DNA of 64,000 nt from an uncultured delta proteobacterium (lineage in GTDB: Bacteria; Desulfobacterota; WTBG01; CAIYCZ01; CAIRTM01): NCBI GenBank assembly GCA_963723235.1, contig CAVRPV010000019.1, positions 18,077 to 82,076 on the forward strand, written 5' to 3'. A program made the position numbers and the translations under genes. Of the stretch, positions 8,413-61,496 are shown in pieces. Numbering within the stretch: the stretch's first letter is position 1; each line of letters starts with the position of its first letter. Below the pieces are notes generated by a model. It ran no database searches. It was not told the DNA's origin and saw only the letters and a program-made list of their open reading frames with translations.

Positions 8413-9864
8413 ATGGCATTGCAAATCCTCTCACCCCTGTCAGTACCCGATGAAGTCGAGCCCCTTATTGAAGCCGGGGCCGGGGCATTCTATTGCGGCA
8501 TTCTGCCGGAAGAGTGGCGCCGGGATTACAGCGTAGCCGCCTCGCTCAACCGCCGTCAGGAAAACACCCCGGGCCTGAACACCAGCCCGCACATGAACAC
8601 CTTTGAGGACCTCGCCCGCTGCGTGGAGCTGGCCCGGCCGCACAACGTGAAGGTGGCAGTCACCCTCAACGAGCACTACTACAGCAACAAACAGTATTCG
8701 TTTCTGACCGGCTATATTGAACAGTGTCTCAAAGCCGGGGCCGATACCTTTATCGTGGGCGACATCGGCATGATTTTGACCCTGCAGGACATTGACCCCG
8801 GCATCACTATACACATCAGCACGGCCGGAACGGCCTTTAATTCTGAAAGTGTGCATTTCTACCGCGACCTCGGGGCCAAGCGCGTTATTTTGCCACGGCA
8901 CCTGACTTTGGATGAAATCCAGGCCATAGTCGACAAGACCAGCGGCATTGAACTGGAAGCATTCATCCTGAACTCGCGCTGCGCCAACATCGACGGTTTC
9001 TGTACGTTCCAGCACGGCCTGGCCGAATTCGTCAAGGAGCCCGAGCGCAAGCGCGACTATGAAAACGCCTGCATGATGCTCTATAAAATAACCGCAGACG
9101 TCAAAGGCTGCGACAGCCAGGAGCAGGCCGAATCGATGCTGCAAAAAGTCTCCTGGGAGCGCCAGCACTTCTGGTCGGCAGTGCATATTGATGACCGGCC
9201 CTGCGGCGCCTGCGCCCTTTACGAATTTGAACGCATGGGCCTGGCCGGAGTCAAAATCGTGGGCCGGGGCAATACCTTCGACAAAAAGATCAAGGACGTG
9301 CGCTTTTTAAAAGGGCAGCTCGACTACCTGCGCACACAGAATCCGACCAGAAAAGAATTTCGCGAGCAGACGCGCAAAATCTACAAAGAAATCTATGACT
9401 GCGTGTGCCTGATTTTCAAATGTTACTATCCCTCGGTCCTGCTGGACGAGGAAAAGGTAGCTGAAAAACACCCGTCTGCAGCGTTGCGCTCATCATTCGT
9501 CACTGCGGCGTACCATAAATACGCCTCATTCCTCATGATTTCGTGCGCCTTGCATCCGAACATTTTTCAGCAACCTTTAATGGCAATCTTTAATAGGCAT
9601 GTATTGTCACCGTGGAACCCTCATATCTTTCAGCCCACAAAAACGGAACGCTTGCTGCCCGCATTGAAATGGCCCTTGATGCTCTCGCGTGCTGCGAAAT
9701 GTGTCCGCGCTGCTGCCGGGTCGACCGCACGGCCGGCAAAACCGGCATATGCAAAACCGGCCGCAACGCAATTGTTGCAAGCTTTGCTCCGCATTTCGGC
9801 GAAGAAGCACCTCTTGTCGGCCGCTACGGCTCAGGCACCATATTCTTCAGCAACTGCAACCTGA
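8413..9864 (+). CDS. Peptidase U32 family protein; 3' end uncertain because the ORF reads through a repeat
   Basis: U32-like N-terminal barrel sequence and Cys motifs (NSRCANIDGFCTFQHG, DRPCGACALYEF). After about codon 350 the frame runs through family-1 copy B and 253 nt into the next gene, so the real C-terminus is probably near 9460. Confidence 0.65.
   Translation: MALQILSPLSVPDEVEPLIEAGAGAFYCGILPEEWRRDYSVAASLNRRQENTPGLNTSPHMNTFEDLARCVELARPHNVKVAVTLNEHYYSNKQYSFLTGYIEQCLKAGADTFIVGDIGMILTLQDIDPGITIHISTAGTAFNSESVHFYRDLGAKRVILPRHLTLDEIQAIVDKTSGIELEAFILNSRCANIDGFCTFQHGLAEFVKEPERKRDYENACMMLYKITADVKGCDSQEQAESMLQKVSWERQHFWSAVHIDDRPCGACALYEFERMGLAGVKIVGRGNTFDKKIKDVRFLKGQLDYLRTQNPTRKEFREQTRKIYKEIYDCVCLIFKCYYPSVLLDEEKVAEKHPSAALRSSFVTAAYHKYASFLMISCALHPNIFQQPLMAIFNRHVLSPWNPHIFQPTKTERLLPALKWPLMLSRAAKCVRAAAGSTARPAKPAYAKPAATQLLQALLRISAKKHLLSAATAQAPYSSATAT
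9460..9575 (-). repeat. Family-1 element, copy B (reverse orientation)
   Basis: The reverse complement reads GGTTGCTGAAAAATGTTCGGATGCAAGGCGCACGAAATCATGAGGAATGAGGCGTA...GTACGCCGCAGTGACGAATGATGAGCGCAACGCTGCAGACGGGTGTTTTTCAGC. Confidence 0.85.
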
Positions 9865-24071: not shown

Positions 24072-25076
24072 GTGAAGGCATTCTGCACACTATTTATTTT
24101 TATGGCACTCTTGCTGTTTTCCGCCAGCCCGGCGATGTCAGAAACACCGCTGCCGGAGCAGGTTGAAAATTCGCTCGGCATGCGCTTTGTCCTGGTGCCG
24201 GCAGGCGAATTTCTGATGGGCAGCGACGAAGATCCCGATTCTCTCGCACAAGCCTATCCGCAGTATGAGCGCCGCCGGTTCCTCATTCTCGGCGACGAGG
24301 CGCCCGTGCACAGGGTCCGCATTACCCGCCCGTTTTACCTTGGCCGGTTTGAAGTAACGGTCGGCCAGTTTAAAAAATTCCTTGCCCTGTCCGGCTACGT
24401 GCCCGAATCCGTGGCCGACGCAACCGGGGGCTACGGCTATAACCGCGACTATGATCCGGCCCAATCCAGACGGGGCGATGCCTTCGAGGGCCGCGACCCG
24501 AAGTATTCCTGGGCAAATCCCGGATTTGCACAAAGCGACAATGATCCGGTGGTCAATGTGACCTGGCAGGACGCGAAAGCCATGGCGGCCTGGCTGAGCC
24601 GCACGGAGGGCACAACATACCGGCTGCCCACCGAGGCCGAGTGGGAGTATGCCTGCCGCGCCGGTACCCGCACGCGCTACTCCAGCGGCGACGACCCGGC
24701 AACGCTGCTCAAGGCGGCCAATGTCTTTGACGCCGACTGCATGCAGAACTGGCTGAAGTGGCAGCAGTACGCTGTGGCAGGCCATGACGGCTTTGCGTTT
24801 ACGGCTCCCGTTGGCAGCTTTGCGCCGAACGCCTGGGGCCTGCACGACATGCACGGCAACGTGTGGGAATGGTGCGCCGACTGGCACAGCGAAACCTATT
24901 ATGCCGATTCGCCCGTTGATGATCCGCAGGGTCCGGCCACGGGTGAGGTGCGGGTGCGCCGCGGCGGGTCCTGGCACACCTGGCCGTTTTACGCGCGCTC
25001 GGCATACCGCAACTGGAACAAGCCCGATACGCGCTACACGCTGGTCGGCATGCGCCTGTTGCGCGAAGCCAAATAG
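24072..25076 (+). CDS. Formylglycine-generating enzyme (SUMF1/FGE-sulfatase) family protein, secreted
   Basis: Signal peptide, GMRFVLVPAGEFLMGS, HDMHGNVWEWCADWH and RVRRGGSWH motifs. Confidence 0.88.
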   Translation: MKAFCTLFIFMALLLFSASPAMSETPLPEQVENSLGMRFVLVPAGEFLMGSDEDPDSLAQAYPQYERRRFLILGDEAPVHRVRITRPFYLGRFEVTVGQFKKFLALSGYVPESVADATGGYGYNRDYDPAQSRRGDAFEGRDPKYSWANPGFAQSDNDPVVNVTWQDAKAMAAWLSRTEGTTYRLPTEAEWEYACRAGTRTRYSSGDDPATLLKAANVFDADCMQNWLKWQQYAVAGHDGFAFTAPVGSFAPNAWGLHDMHGNVWEWCADWHSETYYADSPVDDPQGPATGEVRVRRGGSWHTWPFYARSAYRNWNKPDTRYTLVGMRLLREAK

Positions 25077-25225
25077 AGGCTGATGAAAAAGTCTCTTTAC
25101 ACAGGCTGTTCAAAAATGCATAGATGCAAGGCGCGCGCAATCATGAGGAATGAGGCGTACTTACCGTACGCCGCAGTGACGAATGATAAACGCAACGCAG
25201 CAGATGGGCGTTTTTCAACAGCCTG
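25077..25225 (+). repeat. Family-1 element, copy F, flanked by a perfect 16-bp direct repeat
   Basis: Left arm at 25104 and right arm ending at 25225. ATAGAGGCTGATGAAA occurs at 25073..25088 and again at 25226..25241. Confidence 0.9.
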
Positions 25226-25252
25226 ATAGAGGCTGATGAAACGAAAGGACGT

Positions 25253-25753
25253 GTGATGCTGCTAAAAAAATTATTGGCCCTGCTGATTGTATCCATCGCC
25301 ATACTATCCATGTGCGCAGGCTGCCAGACGCTCCCGCAACCGCCAAAGCCGGATCACCGGGTCACTGAACAGGTGCCCGCCGCGCAGGATATCACCGGGC
25401 CTGCTCCTGGGCAGGCTCCGCCGCAGTCCGCCGTGGGAACCGCCCGCTACTACGCCAACCGCTTCAACGGCAAAAAAACAGCTTCGGGTGAAGTGTTCAA
25501 CCAGAAAAAATTGACCGCCGCCCACCCCACCCTGCCGTTCGGCACGCTGGTGAAAGTCGAAAATCTCGCCAACGGCATATCCGTCATCGTCAAGGTCAAT
25601 GACCGCTGCCGCAAGCATGAGCAAGTTTTTATTGACGTATCACGCGAGGCCGCACTCGAACTCGGCTTTATCAGGCAGGGCACGGCCAAGGTCAGACTGA
25701 CCGTTCTTGCAAATAATCCATCAAGCGAAGTTCCGGCTGCCTCGAAGGATTAA
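25253..25753 (+). CDS. rlpA: RlpA-like lipoprotein (double-psi beta-barrel domain)
   Basis: Lipobox LSMCAGC. GTARYYANRFNGKKTASGEVF...AAHPTLPFGTLVKVENL...VKVNDR. Confidence 0.88.
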   Translation: MMLLKKLLALLIVSIAILSMCAGCQTLPQPPKPDHRVTEQVPAAQDITGPAPGQAPPQSAVGTARYYANRFNGKKTASGEVFNQKKLTAAHPTLPFGTLVKVENLANGISVIVKVNDRCRKHEQVFIDVSREAALELGFIRQGTAKVRLTVLANNPSSEVPAASKD

Positions 25754-27843: not shown

Positions 27844-28162
27844 TGGGAACCGCCCGCTACTACGCCAACCGCTTCAACGGCAAAAAAACAGCTTCGGGTG
27901 AAGTTTTCAGCCAGAAAAAATTGACCGCCGCCCACCCCAGCCTGCCGTTCGGCACACTGGTGAAAGTCGAGAATCTCGCCAACAGCCTATCCGTCATCGT
28001 CAAGGTCAACGACCGCTGCCGCAAGCACGAGGAAGTCTTTATTGATGTGTCACGCGAAGCCGCGCTCGAACTCGGCTTTCTCAGGCACGGCACGGCCAAA
28101 GTCCGGATTACCGTTGTTAAAATAATCCACCAGACAAAGTTTCGGCAACCGTGCAGGATTAA
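27844..28162 (+). pseudogene. 5'-truncated, frameshifted duplicate of the rlpA 3' two-thirds
   Basis: Collinear with 25434..25753 at roughly 90 percent identity (hand count). It lacks the signal peptide and lipobox. A 1-nt gap near 28116 shifts the frame, and the homologous GGATTAA stop is at 28156..28162. Confidence 0.8.
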
Positions 28163-32209: not shown

Positions 32210-32244
32210 AGAATATTACCAATAAAGCAGTAAATTTACCTTCA

Positions 32245-32323
32245 GTCATTCCGGCGAAAGCCGGAATCCAGGGGACTCCGATAAACACAGAAGCACTGGA
32301 CACCGGTTTTCACCGGTGTGACG
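32245..32323 (+). repeat. Family-2 twin-hairpin element
   Basis: GTCATTCCGGCGAAAGCCGGAATCC ... GGACACCGGTTTTCACCGGTGTGACG. Confidence 0.85.
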
Positions 32324-32378
32324 ACTGTTGGCATCAGCATTAATACTCGCAGCATGGCACATGCACGCACATTCAGTT

Positions 32379-39984: not shown

Positions 39985-40018
39985 CGCACCTGCAAAAAGT
40001 CTGAAAATGCTATTTTCA

Positions 40019-40097
40019 GTCATTCCGGCGCAGGCCGGAATCCAGAAATCTCAGCCACGTAGAAAGACACTGGACACCGGCCTTCACCGGTGTGACG
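40019..40097 (+). repeat. Family-2 twin-hairpin element
   Basis: GTCATTCCGGCGCAGGCCGGAATCC ... GGACACCGGCCTTCACCGGTGTGACG. Confidence 0.85.
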
Positions 40098-40122
40098 AAT
40101 TTTGCTAAATCATCAAAGCTTA

Positions 40123-44788: not shown

Positions 44789-45289
44789 ATGATTGCTATT
44801 CACTTTCCCCGCGCTGTTGAGGAGAACCCCTGCGCACAGGCCCTGCACGACCTGTTCCGCGCGGCACAGGCCCGGCCCGGGCATGGACTGCCGGAGATAC
44901 AGCTGGATGCCCCGGTTACAACCGTGCTGCAGCGGGCCCTGCGCACAGGGCGGCTCAAGCGCGGATTTGATACCACACTTGAGGTTCTGGCCAATGAACG
45001 CAACGGCCTTGCACATCTGCGCCACAAAACCGGTACGGAACAAAAAGCGCGGGTATCGCGCCTTATCCTGATAAGCAACGATGCCTCTGAGCGGTTGCTT
45101 CGCGAGATTGCGCTCACACTGCAGCGCAATGCTCCGCGCGTGCTGGCCCTTGCCCTGCAGGCCAACAGCGCTACACTGGGCAGCCTGCTCTTTGGGCCGG
45201 ATACGAATGTCAAGGTGCTGCTGCTTGATCACAAGGACACGGTGGCCGAGATGCTCATTGCCGCAGCGCAGCAGCATGAAACCTGTTAG
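44789..45289 (+). CDS. Hypothetical protein (possibly L7Ae/YlxQ-like fold, weak)
   Basis: ATG at 44789 preceded by AAGGAG. RLILISNDASERLL...LG resembles the L7Ae/YlxQ pattern, but the similarity is weak. Confidence 0.45.
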   Translation: MIAIHFPRAVEENPCAQALHDLFRAAQARPGHGLPEIQLDAPVTTVLQRALRTGRLKRGFDTTLEVLANERNGLAHLRHKTGTEQKARVSRLILISNDASERLLREIALTLQRNAPRVLALALQANSATLGSLLFGPDTNVKVLLLDHKDTVAEMLIAAAQQHETC

Positions 45290-45291
45290 CA

Positions 45292-45382
45292 AAATGTTGC
45301 AAAAGTCTTTTCATACAGGCTGTTCAAAAATGTGCAGATGCAAGGCGCGCAACGCAGCAGATGTATGTTTTTCAACAGCCTG
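45292..45382 (+). repeat. Family-1 mini element, copy N
   Basis: Outer arm AAATGTTGCAAAAGTC. The left arm at 45318 is joined directly (…GCAAGGCGCG|CAACGCAGCAGATG…) to the right arm ending at 45382. CCTGTTAGCA is repeated at 45282..45291 and 45379..45388. Confidence 0.8.
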
Positions 45383-45403
45383 TTAGCAGATCGGGGACAG
45401 ACG

Positions 45404-50027: not shown

Positions 50028-51139
50028 CGATCAACACAGCCGACACCCGCGAATTCCGCATGCATGTCAACCTGGGCCCGCAGCATCCCAGCACGCACGG
50101 CGTGCTGCAGCTGGAGCTGGAAATGTACGGTGAATATGTGCTGGGCATTGACCCGGTGCTGGGGTACGGTCACCGCATGCATGAAAAGATGGGCGAGTCC
50201 CGCCCGTGGCAGTCTTTTTTCGCCAACACACCCCGCATTGATTATGCCTGCTCCCTGCCCCACAGCCTCTGCTATGCCTCGCTGCTTGAGCAGGCTCTGG
50301 GCATTGAGCCGCCGCCGCGCGCACGCTACTTGCGCATTATCGCATCCGAGCTGAACCGGATCGCCAGCCACCTGCTGTGGGTGGGCGCTTTTCTGCTTGA
50401 TCTGGGGGCCTTTACCCCGATCCTGTACTGTTTTGATGACCGCGAACAGGCCGTGGATATCCTGGAGCACCTCACCGGCAACCGCCTGACCCATGCCTGC
50501 ATGTGTGTCGGCGGCGTGACCGGGGACGCAGATGATGCAACCCTTCAGAAAATCAGGGCGTTCATACAGCGCATGCGCGGACGTTTCCAGCTGTATGAGC
50601 GCCTGATCACCAACAATATTATCTTTGTTGTACGCACCCGGGGTATCGGCGTTATCTCTGCGGACATGGCCCGCGCGTACGGCGCAACCGGGCCGGTGCT
50701 GCGCGGCAGCGGCGTGCCATATGATATACGCAAAATTGCGCCCTACGGCGGATATGATGCCTTTGAATTCGATGTGCCGCTGGGCGCAAACGGCGACTGC
50801 CTTGACCGCTACTGCGTGCGCATGCAGGAGATCAGGCAGAGCCTGAGAATTATTGAACAGGCCCTGGACCTTTTGCCCGATGGACCCGTGCGCTCAAAGG
50901 TGCCGCGCCGGATCGCGCCCGCGCCGGGCCATTACAGCTTTTCGGTTGAAGGCGCCCGCGGGGATGTGACCTACTGGGCGGTATCAGACGGCAGCGACAT
51001 CCCCTACCGTTTGAAAATCCGCTCCGCGTGCATGGCGCACTTGAGCCTGGTGCCGGAACTGTGCCGGGGCATGCTGCTGGCGGACCTGATAGCAACCCTG
51101 GGAAGCCTTGACCTGGTCATACCTGAAATCGACCGCTAA
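50024..51139 (+). CDS. nuoD: NADH-quinone oxidoreductase subunit D
   Basis: 371 aa. NLGPQHPSTHGVL motif. The ATGA start overlaps the nuoC stop. Confidence 0.92.
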   Translation: MTINTADTREFRMHVNLGPQHPSTHGVLQLELEMYGEYVLGIDPVLGYGHRMHEKMGESRPWQSFFANTPRIDYACSLPHSLCYASLLEQALGIEPPPRARYLRIIASELNRIASHLLWVGAFLLDLGAFTPILYCFDDREQAVDILEHLTGNRLTHACMCVGGVTGDADDATLQKIRAFIQRMRGRFQLYERLITNNIIFVVRTRGIGVISADMARAYGATGPVLRGSGVPYDIRKIAPYGGYDAFEFDVPLGANGDCLDRYCVRMQEIRQSLRIIEQALDLLPDGPVRSKVPRRIAPAPGHYSFSVEGARGDVTYWAVSDGSDIPYRLKIRSACMAHLSLVPELCRGMLLADLIATLGSLDLVIPEIDR

Positions 51140-51173
51140 GTAATCCCAGAGAAAGGGGTCCAAATAATAAACC

Positions 51174-51247
51174 GTAGGCCGGACTAAGAACCTGACTACA
51201 TGCGATGCCGACAATCCGCCGGACACGCTGCGCTTTGTCCGGCCTAC
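51174..51247. repeat. Family-3 REP doublet (REPIN-like), GCCGGAC class, inside the nuo cluster
   Basis: GTAGGCCGGACTAAGAACC...CGCCGGACACGCTGCGCTTTGTCCGGCCTAC between nuoD and nuoH. Confidence 0.8.
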
Positions 51248-51335
51248 GCATGGGGGATGGCACGGGTTCGTGTCCGGCTTTTTGACCCCTTTCCTCTGGG
51301 GAACTGTGCTAAATGCTGACTGCGAAAGCTCTGTC

Positions 51336-57096: not shown

Positions 57097-57109
57097 GTTA
57101 CTTCTACCC

Positions 57110-57214
57110 GGCTATTGAAAAAAACCTGTCTGCTTGGTTGTGCTCATCATTCGCACGCCTTGCATCCCGATATTTTTAAACAGCCTGTTTTCAATACCTG
57201 TTTCAAAAACCTGC
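57110..57214 (-). repeat. Family-1 mini element, copy O (reverse orientation, extra arm copies)
   Basis: The reverse complement reads ...GGTATTGAAAACAGGCTGTTTAAAAATATCGGGATGCAAGGCGTGCGAATGATGAGCACAACCAAGCAGACAGGTTTTTTTCAATAGCC. Lies between tRNA-Met and the rpoD stop. Confidence 0.75.
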
Positions 57215-57220
57215 TACATA

Positions 57221-58972
57221 TCAGTATTCGACGAAACTCTTCAGTTTTTTGTTGCGGATCGGATGCCGCAGTTTTCTCAGGGCCTTGGCCTCAATCTGGC
57301 GGATGCGCTCACGCGTTACATCAAAATCGCGGCCGACCTCCTCAAGCGTATGATCGGCGCGCTCGCCGATACCGAAACGCAGACGCAGCACCTTTTCCTC
57401 GCGCGGCGTCAGCGTACCCAGCACCCGCTGCGTCTGATCGGACAGATTTTTATACGTGACCGAATCCAGCGGGCTGGCAATTTTTTTGTCCTCAATGAAA
57501 TCCCCAAGATGGCTGTCTTCCTCCTCGCCGATCGGTGTTTCAAGCGATATGGGTTCCTTGGCGATTTTCAAAACCTTGCGCACTTTTTCAAGCGGCAGCT
57601 CCATTTTCTCGGCAATCTCCTCGGGCACAGGCTCGCGTCCGTTTTCCTGCACCAGGTAACGCGAGGTACGGATGAGCTTATTGATGGTCTCAATCATGTG
57701 CACCGGAATTCTGATCGTGCGGGCCTGATCGGCGATGGCGCGGGTAATGGCCTGCCGGATCCACCAGGTGGCATACGTGCTGAATTTGTAGCCGCGCTGA
57801 TACTCAAATTTTTCAACAGCCTTGATAAGGCCGATATTGCCTTCCTGAATCAGGTCTAAAAACTGCAATCCGCGGTTGGTATATTTTTTTGCCAGGCTCA
57901 CCACCAGGCGCAGATTGGAGCGCACCAGCTCATCCTTGGCGATTTTCGCCCGCTTCTCACCGCGCTCAATGCGACTGATTGCATCTTTGAGGCTGGTCAC
58001 AGGCAGGCCTGATTCTTTCTCCATCAGGCGGATCTGCTTGGTGTAATCACGGATCTCACTATCCAGATCCTGCAGGTCCTCGACTTTCAGCCCGAATTTA
58101 CGCTTGATTTTGCGCTGCTCGTTCTTATCATCACGGCCCTGCCGGATCATGCGCCGGATTTCAGTCGGATCGAGTCCCACTTTGCGGCAGCATCGTGTTA
58201 TGCGGCGCTCAAAGGCCTCCACCTCTTTCAAAAACCCCCGCAGCCGTATCACGACCCGATCCAGATATTTTTTCTTTATCCGGAGTTTTTTTAACGCGTC
58301 AAACAGTTCAATCTTGTTGCTTGCAACTTGGCTGCTCAATAACTTTTTGCGCTTTTCGCTCAGTTCCTTTTTTGTCGCCAGCCGCAGGGTTAACTTTTCA
58401 TTTTCATAGTACAGCTTGCCGATATGCTCAACCTGAGCCAGGAAGCCGGCCACATAGCCTTCCTCGTCAATTTCGTTATCTTCATCATCAAGCCCGGTAA
58501 TTATTTCGCGGATGGACATCTCGCCGTTCTCAAGCGCAGTGCCGAGCTGCAGGGTTTCCTCAACCGTTATCGGTGAATTCAACACAACATCCAGAACCTC
58601 TGACTCACCATCCTCAATCCGACGCGCGATACGCACCTCTTCCTCACGGGACAGCAGAGAAACCGAGCCCATTTCTTTCAAATACATGCGCACGGGATCG
58701 TTCATTCTCCCGTAGAGGTCTTTTTCCTCATGCTGCGGGGCATCATCCTGCGCGGCCGCCTTGGCGGACTTGCTGGGTACGCGCACGCCCTGGCCCGAAT
58801 CAACGATTTCAATGTCCATCTCGCCGAACATGTGCATCAGCTCATCGATCTGATCAGGAGATACCATTTCGGGCGGCAAAACATCATTGACTTCATCATA
58901 GGTAAGAAAACCCTTCTCCTTACCGATATCAATCAGCTGCTTTACCTGCTCGATTTTGGGTTTACGTCCCAT
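57221..58972 (-). CDS. rpoD: RNA polymerase sigma factor RpoD
   Basis: 583 aa with regions 1.1 to 4.2 (…[27 protein letters not shown]…). Confidence 0.96.
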
Positions 58973-59012
58973 CTATGCGGCTGCTTCAGACATCTTCACC
59001 GTCAAATGTTGC

Positions 59013-59130
59013 CGCACTCGTAAAAAGTCCGAATCCTGCGTTGCGCCGCATCCTCAGGCATTGCGGCGTACAGCAAGTACGCCTCATTCCTTCGGATTTG
59101 CGCGCCTTGCCTGCGAACTTTACAAACAAT
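59013..59130 (-). repeat. Family-1 element, copy P (diverged), flanked by a 20/21-bp direct repeat
   Basis: The reverse complement reads ATTGTTTGTAAAGTTCGCAGGCAAGGCGCGCAAATCCGAAGGAATGAGGCGTACTTGCTGTACGCCGCAATG...GGACTTTTTACGAGTGCG. Flanks are 58993..59012 and 59131..59151. Confidence 0.8.
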
Positions 59131-59133
59131 TCT

Positions 59134-60939
59134 TCAACCGTCAAATGTTGCTTTCTGTATCTGACGCATCTCCTGCAGCAGATCCTGATACCCGCGCTGA
59201 TGTTCCCGCGCAGCAGATTCATCCCGGGACGCTTCAGCCTGTTTCATAAGCGCGGTCACGCGTTCCCGCGCCCGCGCATTTTTTTTAAGTCGTATGTCAC
59301 GGATACAGTCCGTGAGAATTTTTTGCGCCGGGCCTTCATGCGACTCTGCATAAGCCGCCTCGGCCAGCAACTTCTTTCCAGCCGCATCCGGCACGGCATC
59401 CATAAGTGTTTCCAGATCAAGCCTGGCGCCGTCCCGGCTGTGTTCAAGCAAATGCCGGCACAGGTGCTGTATAGCCGGATCTGCAAAATCATCCAGGATC
59501 TCCGACCGGCTGATTGTGGCTGATGTTTCCGGATGCGTGAACATCAGCTGCAAAATCAATTTTTCGGCATTTCTATGAAAATCTGAACGCTTTTCCGGTT
59601 TATATACTTCGGGTCCGGGCACAGTGCCCGCCCGACTGTCGCGCATGCGGGCAATGACCTGCTGTTCCTGCAGGCCAAGACGCCTGGCCAGTCTTTGAAC
59701 ATACAGCTGGCGCTCCAGCGGATCGCTCAATTGTGCCAGTATGGCAAGCACTGCGTCACAGGCCGCAACTTTGCCGGCCGGATCGGCAATCGCATGATTT
59801 TGTATTGTTTTTTCAATAACATGGTCAAGCACAGGTCCGGCATTGTCCATGTAATCCTTAAATTTTTCGGGCCCGTTGTGCTTGACGAAACTATCCGGAT
59901 CCTCTCCCGTCGGCAACAGTATGAACCGCGGGGTCAATTGCGCGGCCAGAAACGGCTCAAGGCTGCGAACCATCGCGTTTTCACCGGCCGTATCAGCATC
60001 AAAGACCATAATAATATTCTGCGAATAGCGCCTGAGCAGCTGTATATGCTGTTCACTCAAAGCTGTTCCCAGCGCGGCAACCACATTCACTATTCCAGCC
60101 TGATACAGCGTAATGGCGTCCAGATAGCCTTCGACAACCAACACCTGGTTTTCCCGCGATATATGCTGGGACGCCAGCGGCAGCCCGTAGAGACTGCCGC
60201 GCTTGCTGTATATCGACGATTCGGGCGAATTTAAGTATTTAGGCTCACCCTCATCAATTATGCGACCCCCGAACCCGATAACCTGCCGCGCACTGTTGCG
60301 GATCGGGAATATAATTCTATTCCTGAACCGGTCATAGGAGCCACCGGCCTTCCGGGAGGCAAGCAGTCCGATCTCCTGCGCCTTTTCCAGCGAAAATCCC
60401 TTCGCACGCAACTGCCCTGTAAGCGTATCCCAGGCATCCGGCGCAAAACCGATTTCAAAGGTCTCAATGGTTCCGGCGCTTATACCGCGCTCCGAAAGAT
60501 ACTGCCGCGCACGCCCGGCTCGAGGATCTTTGTGCAGCAGCTCAGCGTATATCCGGGCCGCTTCCGCAGTGATTGCAAAGAGCTCTTCGCGCTCTTCAAG
60601 CCGTGCGGCTTCCTGTGGGCTGAGCCGGCGCTCGGGCAGCGTTATGCCGCAGCGCTGAGCCAGGTGCCTGACCGCTTCCGGAAACGTCATATTTTCCCGT
60701 TTCATCAGAAACGTAAAAACATTACCACCTTCACCGCATCCGAAACAGTGAAACGACTGGCGACTTTCGTTGACAAAGAACGATGGGGTCTTTTCATTAT
60801 GAAACGGACAAAGACCCCGGTGGTTAATACCTGTTTTTTTCAGGCTGACATAATCGGAGATGACATCGACTATACTGCATGATTCCCGGACGGAGCTGAT
60901 GACTTCTTCGGGAATGGGGTTTGCTCTGGGTTCCGGCAT
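59134..60939 (-). CDS. dnaG: DNA primase
   Basis: 601 aa. Zinc finger CPFHNEKTPSF...CFGCG, TOPRIM region (VVEGYLD, DAD). Confidence 0.95.
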   Translation of the reverse strand: MPEPRANPIPEEVISSVRESCSIVDVISDYVSLKKTGINHRGLCPFHNEKTPSFFVNESRQSFHCFGCGEGGNVFTFLMKRENMTFPEAVRHLAQRCGITLPERRLSPQEAARLEEREELFAITAEAARIYAELLHKDPRAGRARQYLSERGISAGTIETFEIGFAPDAWDTLTGQLRAKGFSLEKAQEIGLLASRKAGGSYDRFRNRIIFPIRNSARQVIGFGGRIIDEGEPKYLNSPESSIYSKRGSLYGLPLASQHISRENQVLVVEGYLDAITLYQAGIVNVVAALGTALSEQHIQLLRRYSQNIIMVFDADTAGENAMVRSLEPFLAAQLTPRFILLPTGEDPDSFVKHNGPEKFKDYMDNAGPVLDHVIEKTIQNHAIADPAGKVAACDAVLAILAQLSDPLERQLYVQRLARRLGLQEQQVIARMRDSRAGTVPGPEVYKPEKRSDFHRNAEKLILQLMFTHPETSATISRSEILDDFADPAIQHLCRHLLEHSRDGARLDLETLMDAVPDAAGKKLLAEAAYAESHEGPAQKILTDCIRDIRLKKNARARERVTALMKQAEASRDESAAREHQRGYQDLLQEMRQIQKATFDG

Positions 60940-61102
60940 TAGTCGTTATAGAAGACGTTAATCCCGCCCGGGGTACCGAACAGCAGTGCAATGCAGCACA
61001 ACCGCAGAGAACCTCGCATCCTGCGCACAACCTGCGGGCTTTTGCGGCTGAGCGCCATCATATCATATCGTGCGAGCCTGCACGCTCGTGTCTCTTTGCC
61101 TG

Positions 61103-61303
61103 TTACTGAAAAGAGCTCAATGAGCGCAATTTCAATGCACGTTTGCGAGCAGTTACTGCCTTCTTTTTCCTGCGAAGGCTCGGCTTGTCGAAAAACTGCC
61201 GTTTGCGGACTTCAGTTAAAATCCCTGCCTTTTCACACTGTTTTTTGAATCGGCGCAACGCAATTTCAAACGGTTCTTTTTCACGAACAACTATATCCGG
61301 CAT
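61103..61303 (-). CDS. rpsU: 30S ribosomal protein S21
   Basis: [29 protein letters not shown]... ATG at 61303 preceded by a GGGGTG/GAAAGG purine-rich RBS. It lies upstream of dnaG as in the classical operon. Confidence 0.92.
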
Positions 61304-61496
61304 ATGTTTCACCCCTTTCCCTGTATGGATTTCCATCCACAGAAAAAGCGGGTTCCGGGGACATCTCACTACGACTGCGAATTGGACCCACCCCTTTCCG
61401 GGTTAGCACTGTCAGGTGCAATAAAACCATGCAAAACATTACACATATATAAACGTTTTATTATAGCCCCAAAACCGAGATTGTCAAGATTATTTT

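Follow-up and report, generated by a model that had tools for sequence, protein, structure and literature searches.

The 3' end of dnaG contains a small insertion

We analyzed a 64 kb stretch of DNA (the window) in which a small hairpin-forming element lies at the end of the DNA primase gene dnaG, between most of this gene and the primary sigma factor gene rpoD. The genes belong to an rpsU-dnaG-rpoD cluster carried entirely on the minus strand. This gene order is confirmed by Pfam in the window and is the same in L081, L083 and L086. Coordinates are positions in the window, and L-numbers (L001, L002, L081-L086, L186, L188 and L207) are labels for the related strains or loci that were compared with it. 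The cluster has the following features.

61103..61369, minus strand: rpsU (ribosomal protein S21; Pfam Ribosomal_S21), the first gene in the cluster
59134..60939, minus strand: dnaG (DNA primase), 601 aa, ending in ...QKATFDG with a TGA stop at 59136..59134 (open reading frame list and translation)
59131..59151, minus strand: proximal 21-nt repeat GCAACATTTGACGGTTGAAGA, the final dnaG codons and stop (sequence and allele comparison)
58993..59012, minus strand: distal 20-nt repeat GCAACATTTGACGGTGAAGA, the original dnaG 3' codons (ATFDGE..), an exact match to the one copy at the L081 and L083 empty sites
58986..58992, minus strand: relic of the ancestral dnaG end, ..(GA)T GTC TGA, with the old stop at 58986-58988 (the same GATGTCTGA in L081, L086 and L001)
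58973..58985, minus strand: rpoD leader of 13 nt, AGCAGCCGCATAG, whose Shine-Dalgarno region reads AGCAG
57221..58972, minus strand: rpoD (primary sigma factor), 583 aa (open reading frame and Pfam sigma-70)

The rpsU reading frame as called probably starts too far upstream. The dnaG product contains the Pfam domains Zn_ribbon_DnaG, DNAG_N, Toprim and DnaB_bind. Read on the minus strand, the gene ends CAG AAA GCA ACA TTT GAC GGT TGA AGA and continues into element sequence (ATTGTTTGTAAAG...ACGAGTGCG). On the 3' side of the element, the sequence GCA ACA TTT GAC GGT GAA GAT GTC TGA is followed by the 13-nt leader and the rpoD ATG (58972). The ATG is 13 nt past the old dnaG stop and 161 nt from the present one.

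The proximal repeat equals the distal 20-mer plus one extra T. A 15-mer common to both repeats, GCAACATTTGACGGT, occurs exactly twice in the window (58998-59012 and 59137-59151). This count stays at two when two mismatches are allowed, compared with an expectation of 0.18 in shuffled sequences. A first-pass annotation of this DNA had described the two 20-mers, the extra T and the translations, and all of these, with their coordinates, are correct in the sequence. Its claim that a single extra base makes the present stop codon also agrees with the sequence, in which the extra T gives the TGA at 59136..59134.

Close relatives retain the empty site

We identified relatives by a DnaG protein search. 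The closest DnaG (L081, 94% amino acid identity) has 604 aa and ends ...QKATFDGEDV. Relatives at 83-84% identity likewise have 604 aa and end in ATFDGEHV or ATLDGEQV, and those at 75-78% identity end in ATYDV. The last group includes L001 (76%), which has the same GATGTCTGA as the window.

Several of these relatives have the dnaG end without the element. The L081 junction reads ...cagaaaGCAACATTTGACGGTGAAGAtgtctgaaaggagccgcatagATGggacg, with a single 20-mer and the rpoD ATG 14 nt past the dnaG stop. L082 and L083 likewise have a single 20-mer and ATFDGEDV or ATFDGEHV tails, and neither has an element at the dnaG end; the contig that carries the L083 locus is 210 kb long and matches the window at 90-97% identity. 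The element is also absent from L001, which provides a more distant empty site. A scan of genome contigs returned only relatives at no more than 83% identity (L001 and L002), which serve just as distant empty sites, and a metagenome scan with the conserved 29-nt rpoD 5' sequence gave no matches.

Because the empty-site relatives have a single 20-mer, the distal copy in the window is the original dnaG end. The comparison confirms that the insertion into the end of dnaG is real and recent and that DnaG lost its last three residues. The first-pass annotation had already placed the insertion within the final dnaG codons, taken it as a sign of past mobility, and proposed that DnaG shortened by three residues and that the dnaG-rpoD spacer grew from 13 to 161 nt. 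Each of these points is borne out: close relatives hold filled and empty alleles, their DnaG proteins have 604 aa to the window's 601, and their stop-to-ATG distance is 14 nt (13 nt in the window relic). L081, L082 and L083, which lack the element there, have one 20-mer and an ATFDGEDV or ATFDGEHV end, rather than both 20-mers and an ATFDG end.

The element belongs to a widespread family of hairpin-forming miniature elements

The first-pass annotation had delimited the element as 59013-59130. Alignment to related copies gives wider, canonical boundaries and the following parts.

59011..59142, minus strand: inserted element, 132 nt (absent from L081, L083, L082 and L001; aligned to L086, to the L083 copy and to metagenome copies)
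59143..59149, minus strand: left copy of the 7-bp target-site duplication AACATTT (register from alignment with canonical members and from the family's 6-7 bp A...TT rule)
59114..59142, minus strand: remodelled left end GACGGTTGAAGAATTGTTTGTAAAGTTCG (pairwise comparison of the window with L086)
59063..59090, minus strand: conserved core hairpin GGAATGAGGCGTAC-TTGCT-GTACGCCGC, at the center of a long imperfect palindrome
59011..59030, minus strand: right terminal inverted repeat C GGACTTTTTACGAGTGCGGC (from alignment; it ends ...GCGGC here and ...CCGTC in the canonical form)
59004..59010, minus strand: right copy of the 7-bp duplication AACATTT, inside the distal 20-nt repeat

The element (132 nt in the window, 162 nt in L086) encodes no transposase or other gene, and its sole open frame is spurious. 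The total insertion in the window is 139 nt. Without the extra T it would be 138 nt, or 46 codons, free of stops and in frame to the old dnaG stop.

We identified at least 13 related hairpin-repeat copies in the window. Twelve of these (c1-c12) are type 2 copies with ends CAGGCTGTT[C/G]AAAAA. The dnaG copy (copy P) has CGCRCTCGTAAAAAGT-like ends and is the window's only type 1 copy. The core is common to both types, and a metagenome scan for its motif, GGAATGAGGCGTAC-N2-9-GTACGCCGC, matched at least 120 contigs from many sediment and wetland samples.

Aligned metagenome copies (here and below, among the matches listed) reveal an asymmetric architecture. An outer left repeat A (GAYGnnnTCGTAAAAAGTC) is followed by an A/T-rich spacer of 8-18 nt and an inner left repeat B, GACGGnTTCGTAAAAAG. 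Next come the long imperfect palindrome centered on the core and a single inverted right repeat C, CTTTTTACGAnnCCGTC. Repeats A and B are direct repeats of each other, and C is inverted. The copies in L086 and L083, and dozens from metagenomes, have terminal inverted repeats of this form (GACGGnTTCGTAAAAAG ... CTTTTTACGAnnCCGTC). Across 55 distinct copies, paired positions of the palindrome change together, for example GC in 35 and CG in 16 copies at one pair and AU in 38 and GC in 12 at another. The palindrome is thus maintained by compensatory changes. The dnaG copy is a type 1 member with an intact right terminal repeat and a damaged left end, in which a recognizable outer left terminal repeat is missing.

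Flanking sequences reveal the duplication rule of each type. In 17 of 35 full-length type 1 copies, the 6 nt before A and the 6 nt after C are identical in at least five positions, against a chance expectation of about 0.005 per copy. Identity beyond these 6 nt falls to chance frequency, and the distribution of repeat lengths peaks at 6-7 bp. Type 1 duplications start with A and end with T(T), as in AAATTT, AAATGT, ATCTTT, AGTAAT, ACATTT and AGAACTT, following a loose A-N-T-T rule. Type 2 copies instead have a 4-bp YTAR duplication on their flanks, for example CTAG, TTAA, CTAA or TTAG. With duplications of 6-7 bp in one type and 4 bp in the other, this element family does not make 20-bp duplications. 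Within the window alone, flank-repeat statistics are uninformative except for copies c4, c10 and P.

These lengths also bear on three candidate mechanisms. Casposon-like (Cas1) integration, considered as a source of 14-20 bp duplications, was rejected because the family duplicates 6-7 bp. A REP/REPIN element mobilized by RAYT, which would make no target duplication and consist of short GC-rich palindromes in inverted pairs, was discarded on the regular 6-7 bp or 4-bp duplications and the A/T-rich terminal repeats. A DDE element of the long-duplication type (IS1202/ISTde1), with at least 15 bp duplicated at every insertion, does not fit a length distribution that peaks at 6-7 bp with only chance identity beyond.

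Type 2 copies in the window (2980-45382, 9455-9580, 57108-57187) are modular internal variants, some of which have CATTTGTAGGGGCACGGCATGCCGTGCCCCTAC in place of the GGAATGAGGCGTAC core, and include short deletion forms of 67 and 80 nt. All are intergenic, frequently placed after a stop codon and before the following ribosome-binding site, and 10 of the 12 are in the plus orientation.

A full-length type 1 copy occurs in L083 (13582-13702, with the A repeat extending to about 13745), 88.8% identical to the dnaG copy and in the opposite orientation. It lies on the rpoD stop codon, where the TGA consists of the last T of the duplication AATACT and the first GA of the element; the window has no copy there.

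Searches for known relatives and for an autonomous partner returned little. Rfam has no family for the element: the only hit in the window at the gathering threshold is a tRNA, and around the element only noise appears at E-values up to 10. A full-text literature search with the core 14-mer and a terminal-repeat word found no publication. In the metagenome loci examined, we found no transposase gene between terminal-repeat pairs; the intervals hold radical SAM, GPR and MFS genes. [quoted passage not shown]

The dnaG element is small and non-coding, has terminal inverted repeats and a target duplication with a corresponding empty site, and belongs to a set of multiple dispersed copies. It is a MITE-like, non-autonomous, hairpin-forming miniature element. 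The hairpin family as a whole is apparently undescribed, widespread and asymmetric, with two end classes that each have their own duplication rule.

A sister allele points to a 7-bp duplication and a later rearrangement

L086, an assembly that is 95-99% identical to the window around the locus, carries the same insertion. Its element has a right junction identical to that of the window and a core that is 97% identical, and the two differ at the left end. The L086 left junction reads, in succession, GCAACATTTGACG, AAGTCGCAAAAAGTC, AGAAATGAACGATTTTTA and GACGCGTTTGTAAAAAGTTCG. It contains an intact A repeat, spacer and B repeat and aligns column for column with the metagenome copies and with the intact L083 copy after rpoD.

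The L086 element is 162 nt long and is flanked by the 7-bp duplication AACATTT, for a total insertion of 169 nt. The direct repeat around it measures 13 nt, GC + AACATTT + the element's first four bases GACG. It reaches this length because the start (GACG) and end (GC) of the element match the target bases that flank AACATTT; the canonical family end is TC. Only the first 13 nt of the proximal repeat in the window (59139-59151) are common to L086. This finding, together with the shared right junction and the 6-7 bp duplications of the family, contradicts the first-pass view that the 20 bp are a target-site duplication. An unusual long-duplication mechanism is not needed for a real duplication of 7 bp, and long duplications by DDE enzymes have precedents in the IS1202 family.

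Where L086 has 38 nt, made up of the remainder of repeat A, the spacer and the start of B, the window has only 11 nt, GTTGAAGAATT. The junction now reads GGTTGAAGAATTG, and the resulting left end GACGGTTGAAGA matches the native GACGGTGAAGA except for one extra T. Through the 38-to-11 nt replacement, the flanking repeat came to look 20/21 nt long and the GGT TGA stop arose.

We propose, with a probability of roughly 0.78, a canonical insertion with a 7-bp duplication followed by rearrangement of the left end in the window lineage. A recent ancestor of the window strain, already separate from the strains that still have the empty site, would have acquired a type 1 miniature element by transposition into the last dnaG codons. 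The original insertion would have been the canonical one kept in L086, with a 162-nt element, the duplication AACATTT and, from the start, a 13-nt direct repeat due to the element ends that match target bases. DnaG would at first have read into the element and ended in ATFDEVAKSQK. In the window lineage, the later exchange of 38 nt for GTTGAAGAATT would have eliminated repeat A together with outer B, yielding GGT TGA, a DnaG that ends in ATFDG and the apparent repeat of 20/21 nt. Loss of A and outer B probably immobilized the window copy.

We infer that the L086-like state came first because it is canonical throughout, with its A repeat exactly one regular duplication from the right junction, and because no simple event rebuilds its arrangement from the window state. 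Three sources of the 11 nt are possible. The distal repeat could have served as template from which 7-8 nt were copied. A series of deletions in the L086 spacer could likewise have produced the 11 nt (TGAACGATT...GTTTGT to TGAAGAATTGTTTGT, 12/14 identical), as could conversion by a type 2 left end (GGTTGAAGAATT compared with TGTTGAAAAATT of copy c5, 10/12).

Sequence identities differ on the two sides of the junction. In dnaG (59200-60939 compared), the window and L086 are 94.9% identical, and L086 and the empty-site strain L081 are 97.3% identical. In rpoD (57221-58972), the window and L086 are 99.1% identical. These differing strain relationships indicate that homologous recombination between strains shuffled the region near the junction.

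A rival model built on the first-pass reading has a single 118-nt insertion with a true 20-bp duplication made by a long staggered cut. The window would then be the original state, bar the extra T, and L086 would be derived. The proximal copy does match 20 of 20 target bases with one inserted T, DDE elements with duplications of 15-28 bp exist, and copy c4 in the window has a 16-bp flanking repeat. We nonetheless regard this explanation as unlikely. Duplications across the family have 6-7 or 4 bp, and the window copy has no recognizable outer left terminal repeat. Moreover, the canonical A repeat of L086 lies exactly one duplication (AACATTT) from the right junction, an arrangement very unlikely to be recreated later. 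The c4 repeat itself consists of a YTAR duplication, ATAG, and 12 nt of the element's own A repeat, and looks like the remnant of a tandem or second copy.

Integration at an att-type site would likewise place a flanking repeat over the 3' end of a gene. The element would have brought its own version of the dnaG 3' end and, by recombination with it, restored the end of its target gene, in keeping with the match of its ends (GACG and GC) to target bases beside the duplication and with the related L083 copy that lies exactly on the rpoD stop codon. We consider this barely credible, since flanking repeats vary between copies under a loose A-N-T-T rule with no single core sequence, identity beyond 6-7 nt is at chance level across the family, and no recombinase gene is associated with the element in the loci examined.

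An assembly or consensus artefact of mixed alleles, at the left junction of the window or at the extra T alone, would leave the true DnaG either reading through the element or matching that of L086. The window comes from a metagenome-assembled contig (200,650 nt), and closely related samples contain filled as well as empty alleles. The L207 assembly, with 99.4-99.5% identity to the window, is garbled at this point, and removal of the T would leave the 46 codons open to the old stop. This explanation nevertheless seems highly improbable: dnaG, rpoD and mutS in the window are intact and free of frameshifts, unlike those of long-read relatives, and the junction between GAAGA and ATTG shares no long k-mer with the empty or the L086-type allele. 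A simple graph chimera does not explain such a junction.

Several observations weigh against the proposed canonical insertion and later rearrangement. First, which of the two left junctions is older is argued from parsimony, with just two filled alleles to compare. A possible third, in the L207 assembly of the window's own lineage (99.4% in dnaG), has element sequence at the junction and is garbled exactly there. Second, chance alone would rarely give the eight extra target-like nucleotides, GT(T)GAAGA (roughly 1e-3), so that templated copying or a multi-step deletion path (TGAACGATT to TGAAGAATT) is needed. Third, the identity of the element ends GACG and GC with the target is itself a coincidence of about 1e-3, unless the element has a target preference; this copy had, however, been picked for its long repeat, so some fortuitous identity is expected. 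Fourth, the L086 and L083 assemblies contain frameshifts and look long-read, which makes their single-base details unreliable. Finally, neither the repeat-pair intervals nor the viral contigs yielded a transposase with matching ends.

Consequences for DnaG and rpoD

The insertion changed the DnaG tail from the ancestral ATFDGEDV to ATFDG in the window and, where the frame runs on into repeat A, ATFDEVAKSQK in L086. Variability of the tail at genus level (ATYDV, ATFDGEHV, ATLDGEQV) suggests that the last DnaG residues are tolerant of change.

The lengthened spacer may also affect rpoD. For its transcript, folding predicts an extended hairpin (-62 kcal/mol for 188 nt, z = -2.2), and no intrinsic terminator was found in the element. 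The Shine-Dalgarno sequence of rpoD is AAGGAG in L081, L082, L083, L086 and L207, and AGCAG in the window alone (one base lost and a G-to-C change). The window rpoD thus appears, from its sequence, to be left without an obvious ribosome-binding site. The remodelled junction creates TTGACG-16 nt-TAAAGT (59144..59117), a 9/12 sigma-70-like match that faces rpoD and is not above shuffle expectation. This match would be a candidate hybrid promoter before rpoD, through which the rearrangement might influence rpoD expression.

Other elements and variable sites

Comparison of the other window copies with L083-L086 mostly failed to find clean empty sites; the same intergenic positions hold different elements in the relatives. 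Element turnover appears to be very fast between strains that are about 95% identical, which seem to differ at most intergenic sites.

Copy c4 (25102-25225) lies at 25072-25241 between two 16-nt direct repeats, ATAGAGGCTGATGAAA. The repeat overlaps the TAG that ends the FGE-sulfatase-like gene upstream (24072-25076), and the following gene's ribosome-binding site comes after it; the composition of the repeat (ATAG and 12 nt of repeat A) may reflect a tandem-copy remnant. The same pattern occurs in L188 and L186, and L084 has an unrelated 128-nt filler at this site. At copy c10, a 67-nt form, the window (45271-45403) corresponds to a 6.9-kb block in L085 (2145-9047) that encodes Fic/RhuM, a MazE antitoxin and other proteins, which makes this element-marked site a variable island.

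We also noticed sequences outside the hairpin family. A 183-nt insertion (51139-51323), absent from L083, lies between the inverted repeats CCCAGAGGAAAGGGGTC...GACCCCTTTCTCTGGG. Its GTAGGCCGGAC...GTCCGGCCTAC palindromes recall the REP sequences of enterobacteria, and another element occupies the site in L086. A further repeat family (TCATTCCGGCGAAAGCCGGAATCCAGG...TGGACACCGG..TTCACCGGTGTGACG) occurs at 32241-32330 and 40015-40104 in the window, at about 14860-14960 in L083 and at other sites in relatives. Between rpsU and dnaG, a 41-nt segment (61007-61047, CCGCAAAAGCCCGCAGGTTGTGCGCAGGATGCGAGGTTCTC) is absent from L083. Finally, a 275-nt direct duplication (25434-25708 and 27844-28118; 92% identity, 2.4 kb apart) lies within a region of DPBB_1-domain genes that is rearranged relative to L084.

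Implications

The dnaG insertion is an ordinary kind of event that is well documented here. With both empty and filled alleles known, it provides a clean natural case in which a miniature transposon gave an essential replication protein a new C-terminal tail. The insertion lies within the conserved rpsU-dnaG-rpoD cluster, and two strains have two different replacement tails. The case also shows that a long flanking repeat is open to misreading: a normal 7-bp duplication, element ends that happen to match the target and a later rearrangement can together mimic a 20-bp duplication. The family's architecture and insertion rules could aid the annotation of environmental anaerobe genomes and the discovery of the transposase.

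A broader joint reading, which we consider doubtful, would unite these observations in a widespread, apparently undescribed superfamily of structured MITEs of anaerobic sediment bacteria, with two end classes, fast turnover and a dnaG junction reshaped under selection. If so, one core hairpin would be carried between terminal-repeat classes with YTAR and 6-7 bp A-N-T-T rules, and the asymmetric left end would consist of two direct repeats that resemble transposase sites. Selection would have trimmed an aberrant primase tail, or built the TTGACG-16-TAAAGT promoter before an rpoD that lacks a Shine-Dalgarno sequence.

Comparison with known systems

Among the nearest described cases, Chunjie, a MITE from Geobacter uraniireducens Rf4, is a non-coding element of 178-235 bp with many size variants in intergenic regions (Chen et al. 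2008, Genetics 179:2291, summarized in PMC10969869). It resembles the present family in its small non-coding form, terminal inverted repeats, flanking direct repeats and anaerobic deltaproteobacterium-type host, and one Chunjie copy lies within an operon without destroying it. The two differ in that their sequences are unrelated and that the present family has elements of 120-165 nt, two direct left repeats with one inverted right repeat and a conserved GGAATGAGGCGTAC core. The copy studied here, moreover, lies within the coding end of an essential gene.

Among DDE insertion sequences, the IS1202 family (ISTde1 and the IS1202 subgroups) makes target duplications of 15-17 bp and 27-28 bp. These are autonomous elements of 1.5 kb, unlike the present family with its 6-7 bp duplications. 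The IS5 family offers a parallel to the type 2 copies, since the YTAR duplication of the IS5 group recurs in the CTAG, TTAA, CTAA and TTAG that flank c1-c12. The type 2 ends may also resemble the IS903 end, GGCTTTGTTGAATAAATC. Unlike the IS5 family, the dnaG copy belongs to the type 1 subfamily with its longer duplication, and no transposase was found for the family in the loci and viral contigs examined.

Correia (NEMIS) elements of Neisseria are abundant intergenic hairpin MITEs of 100-160 bp that are co-transcribed with their neighbors and can create hybrid promoters. An IHF site and a TA target duplication are typical of them. The family described here differs in duplicating 6-7 bp (type 1) or YTAR (type 2), and the promoter-like site at dnaG is only a 9/12 consensus match.

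Finally, also among the nearest described cases, the dnaG copy resembles Rickettsia palindromic elements and intragenic ERIC, BOX and QMITE copies, which are palindromic miniature elements inside open reading frames that alter the encoded protein. The insertion comes near the Rickettsia type in that, without the extra T, it would be an in-frame, stop-free insert of 46 codons. It differs in its outcome: both filled dnaG alleles stop at or just inside the element, which gives DnaG a changed C-terminal tail rather than an internal peptide insert.

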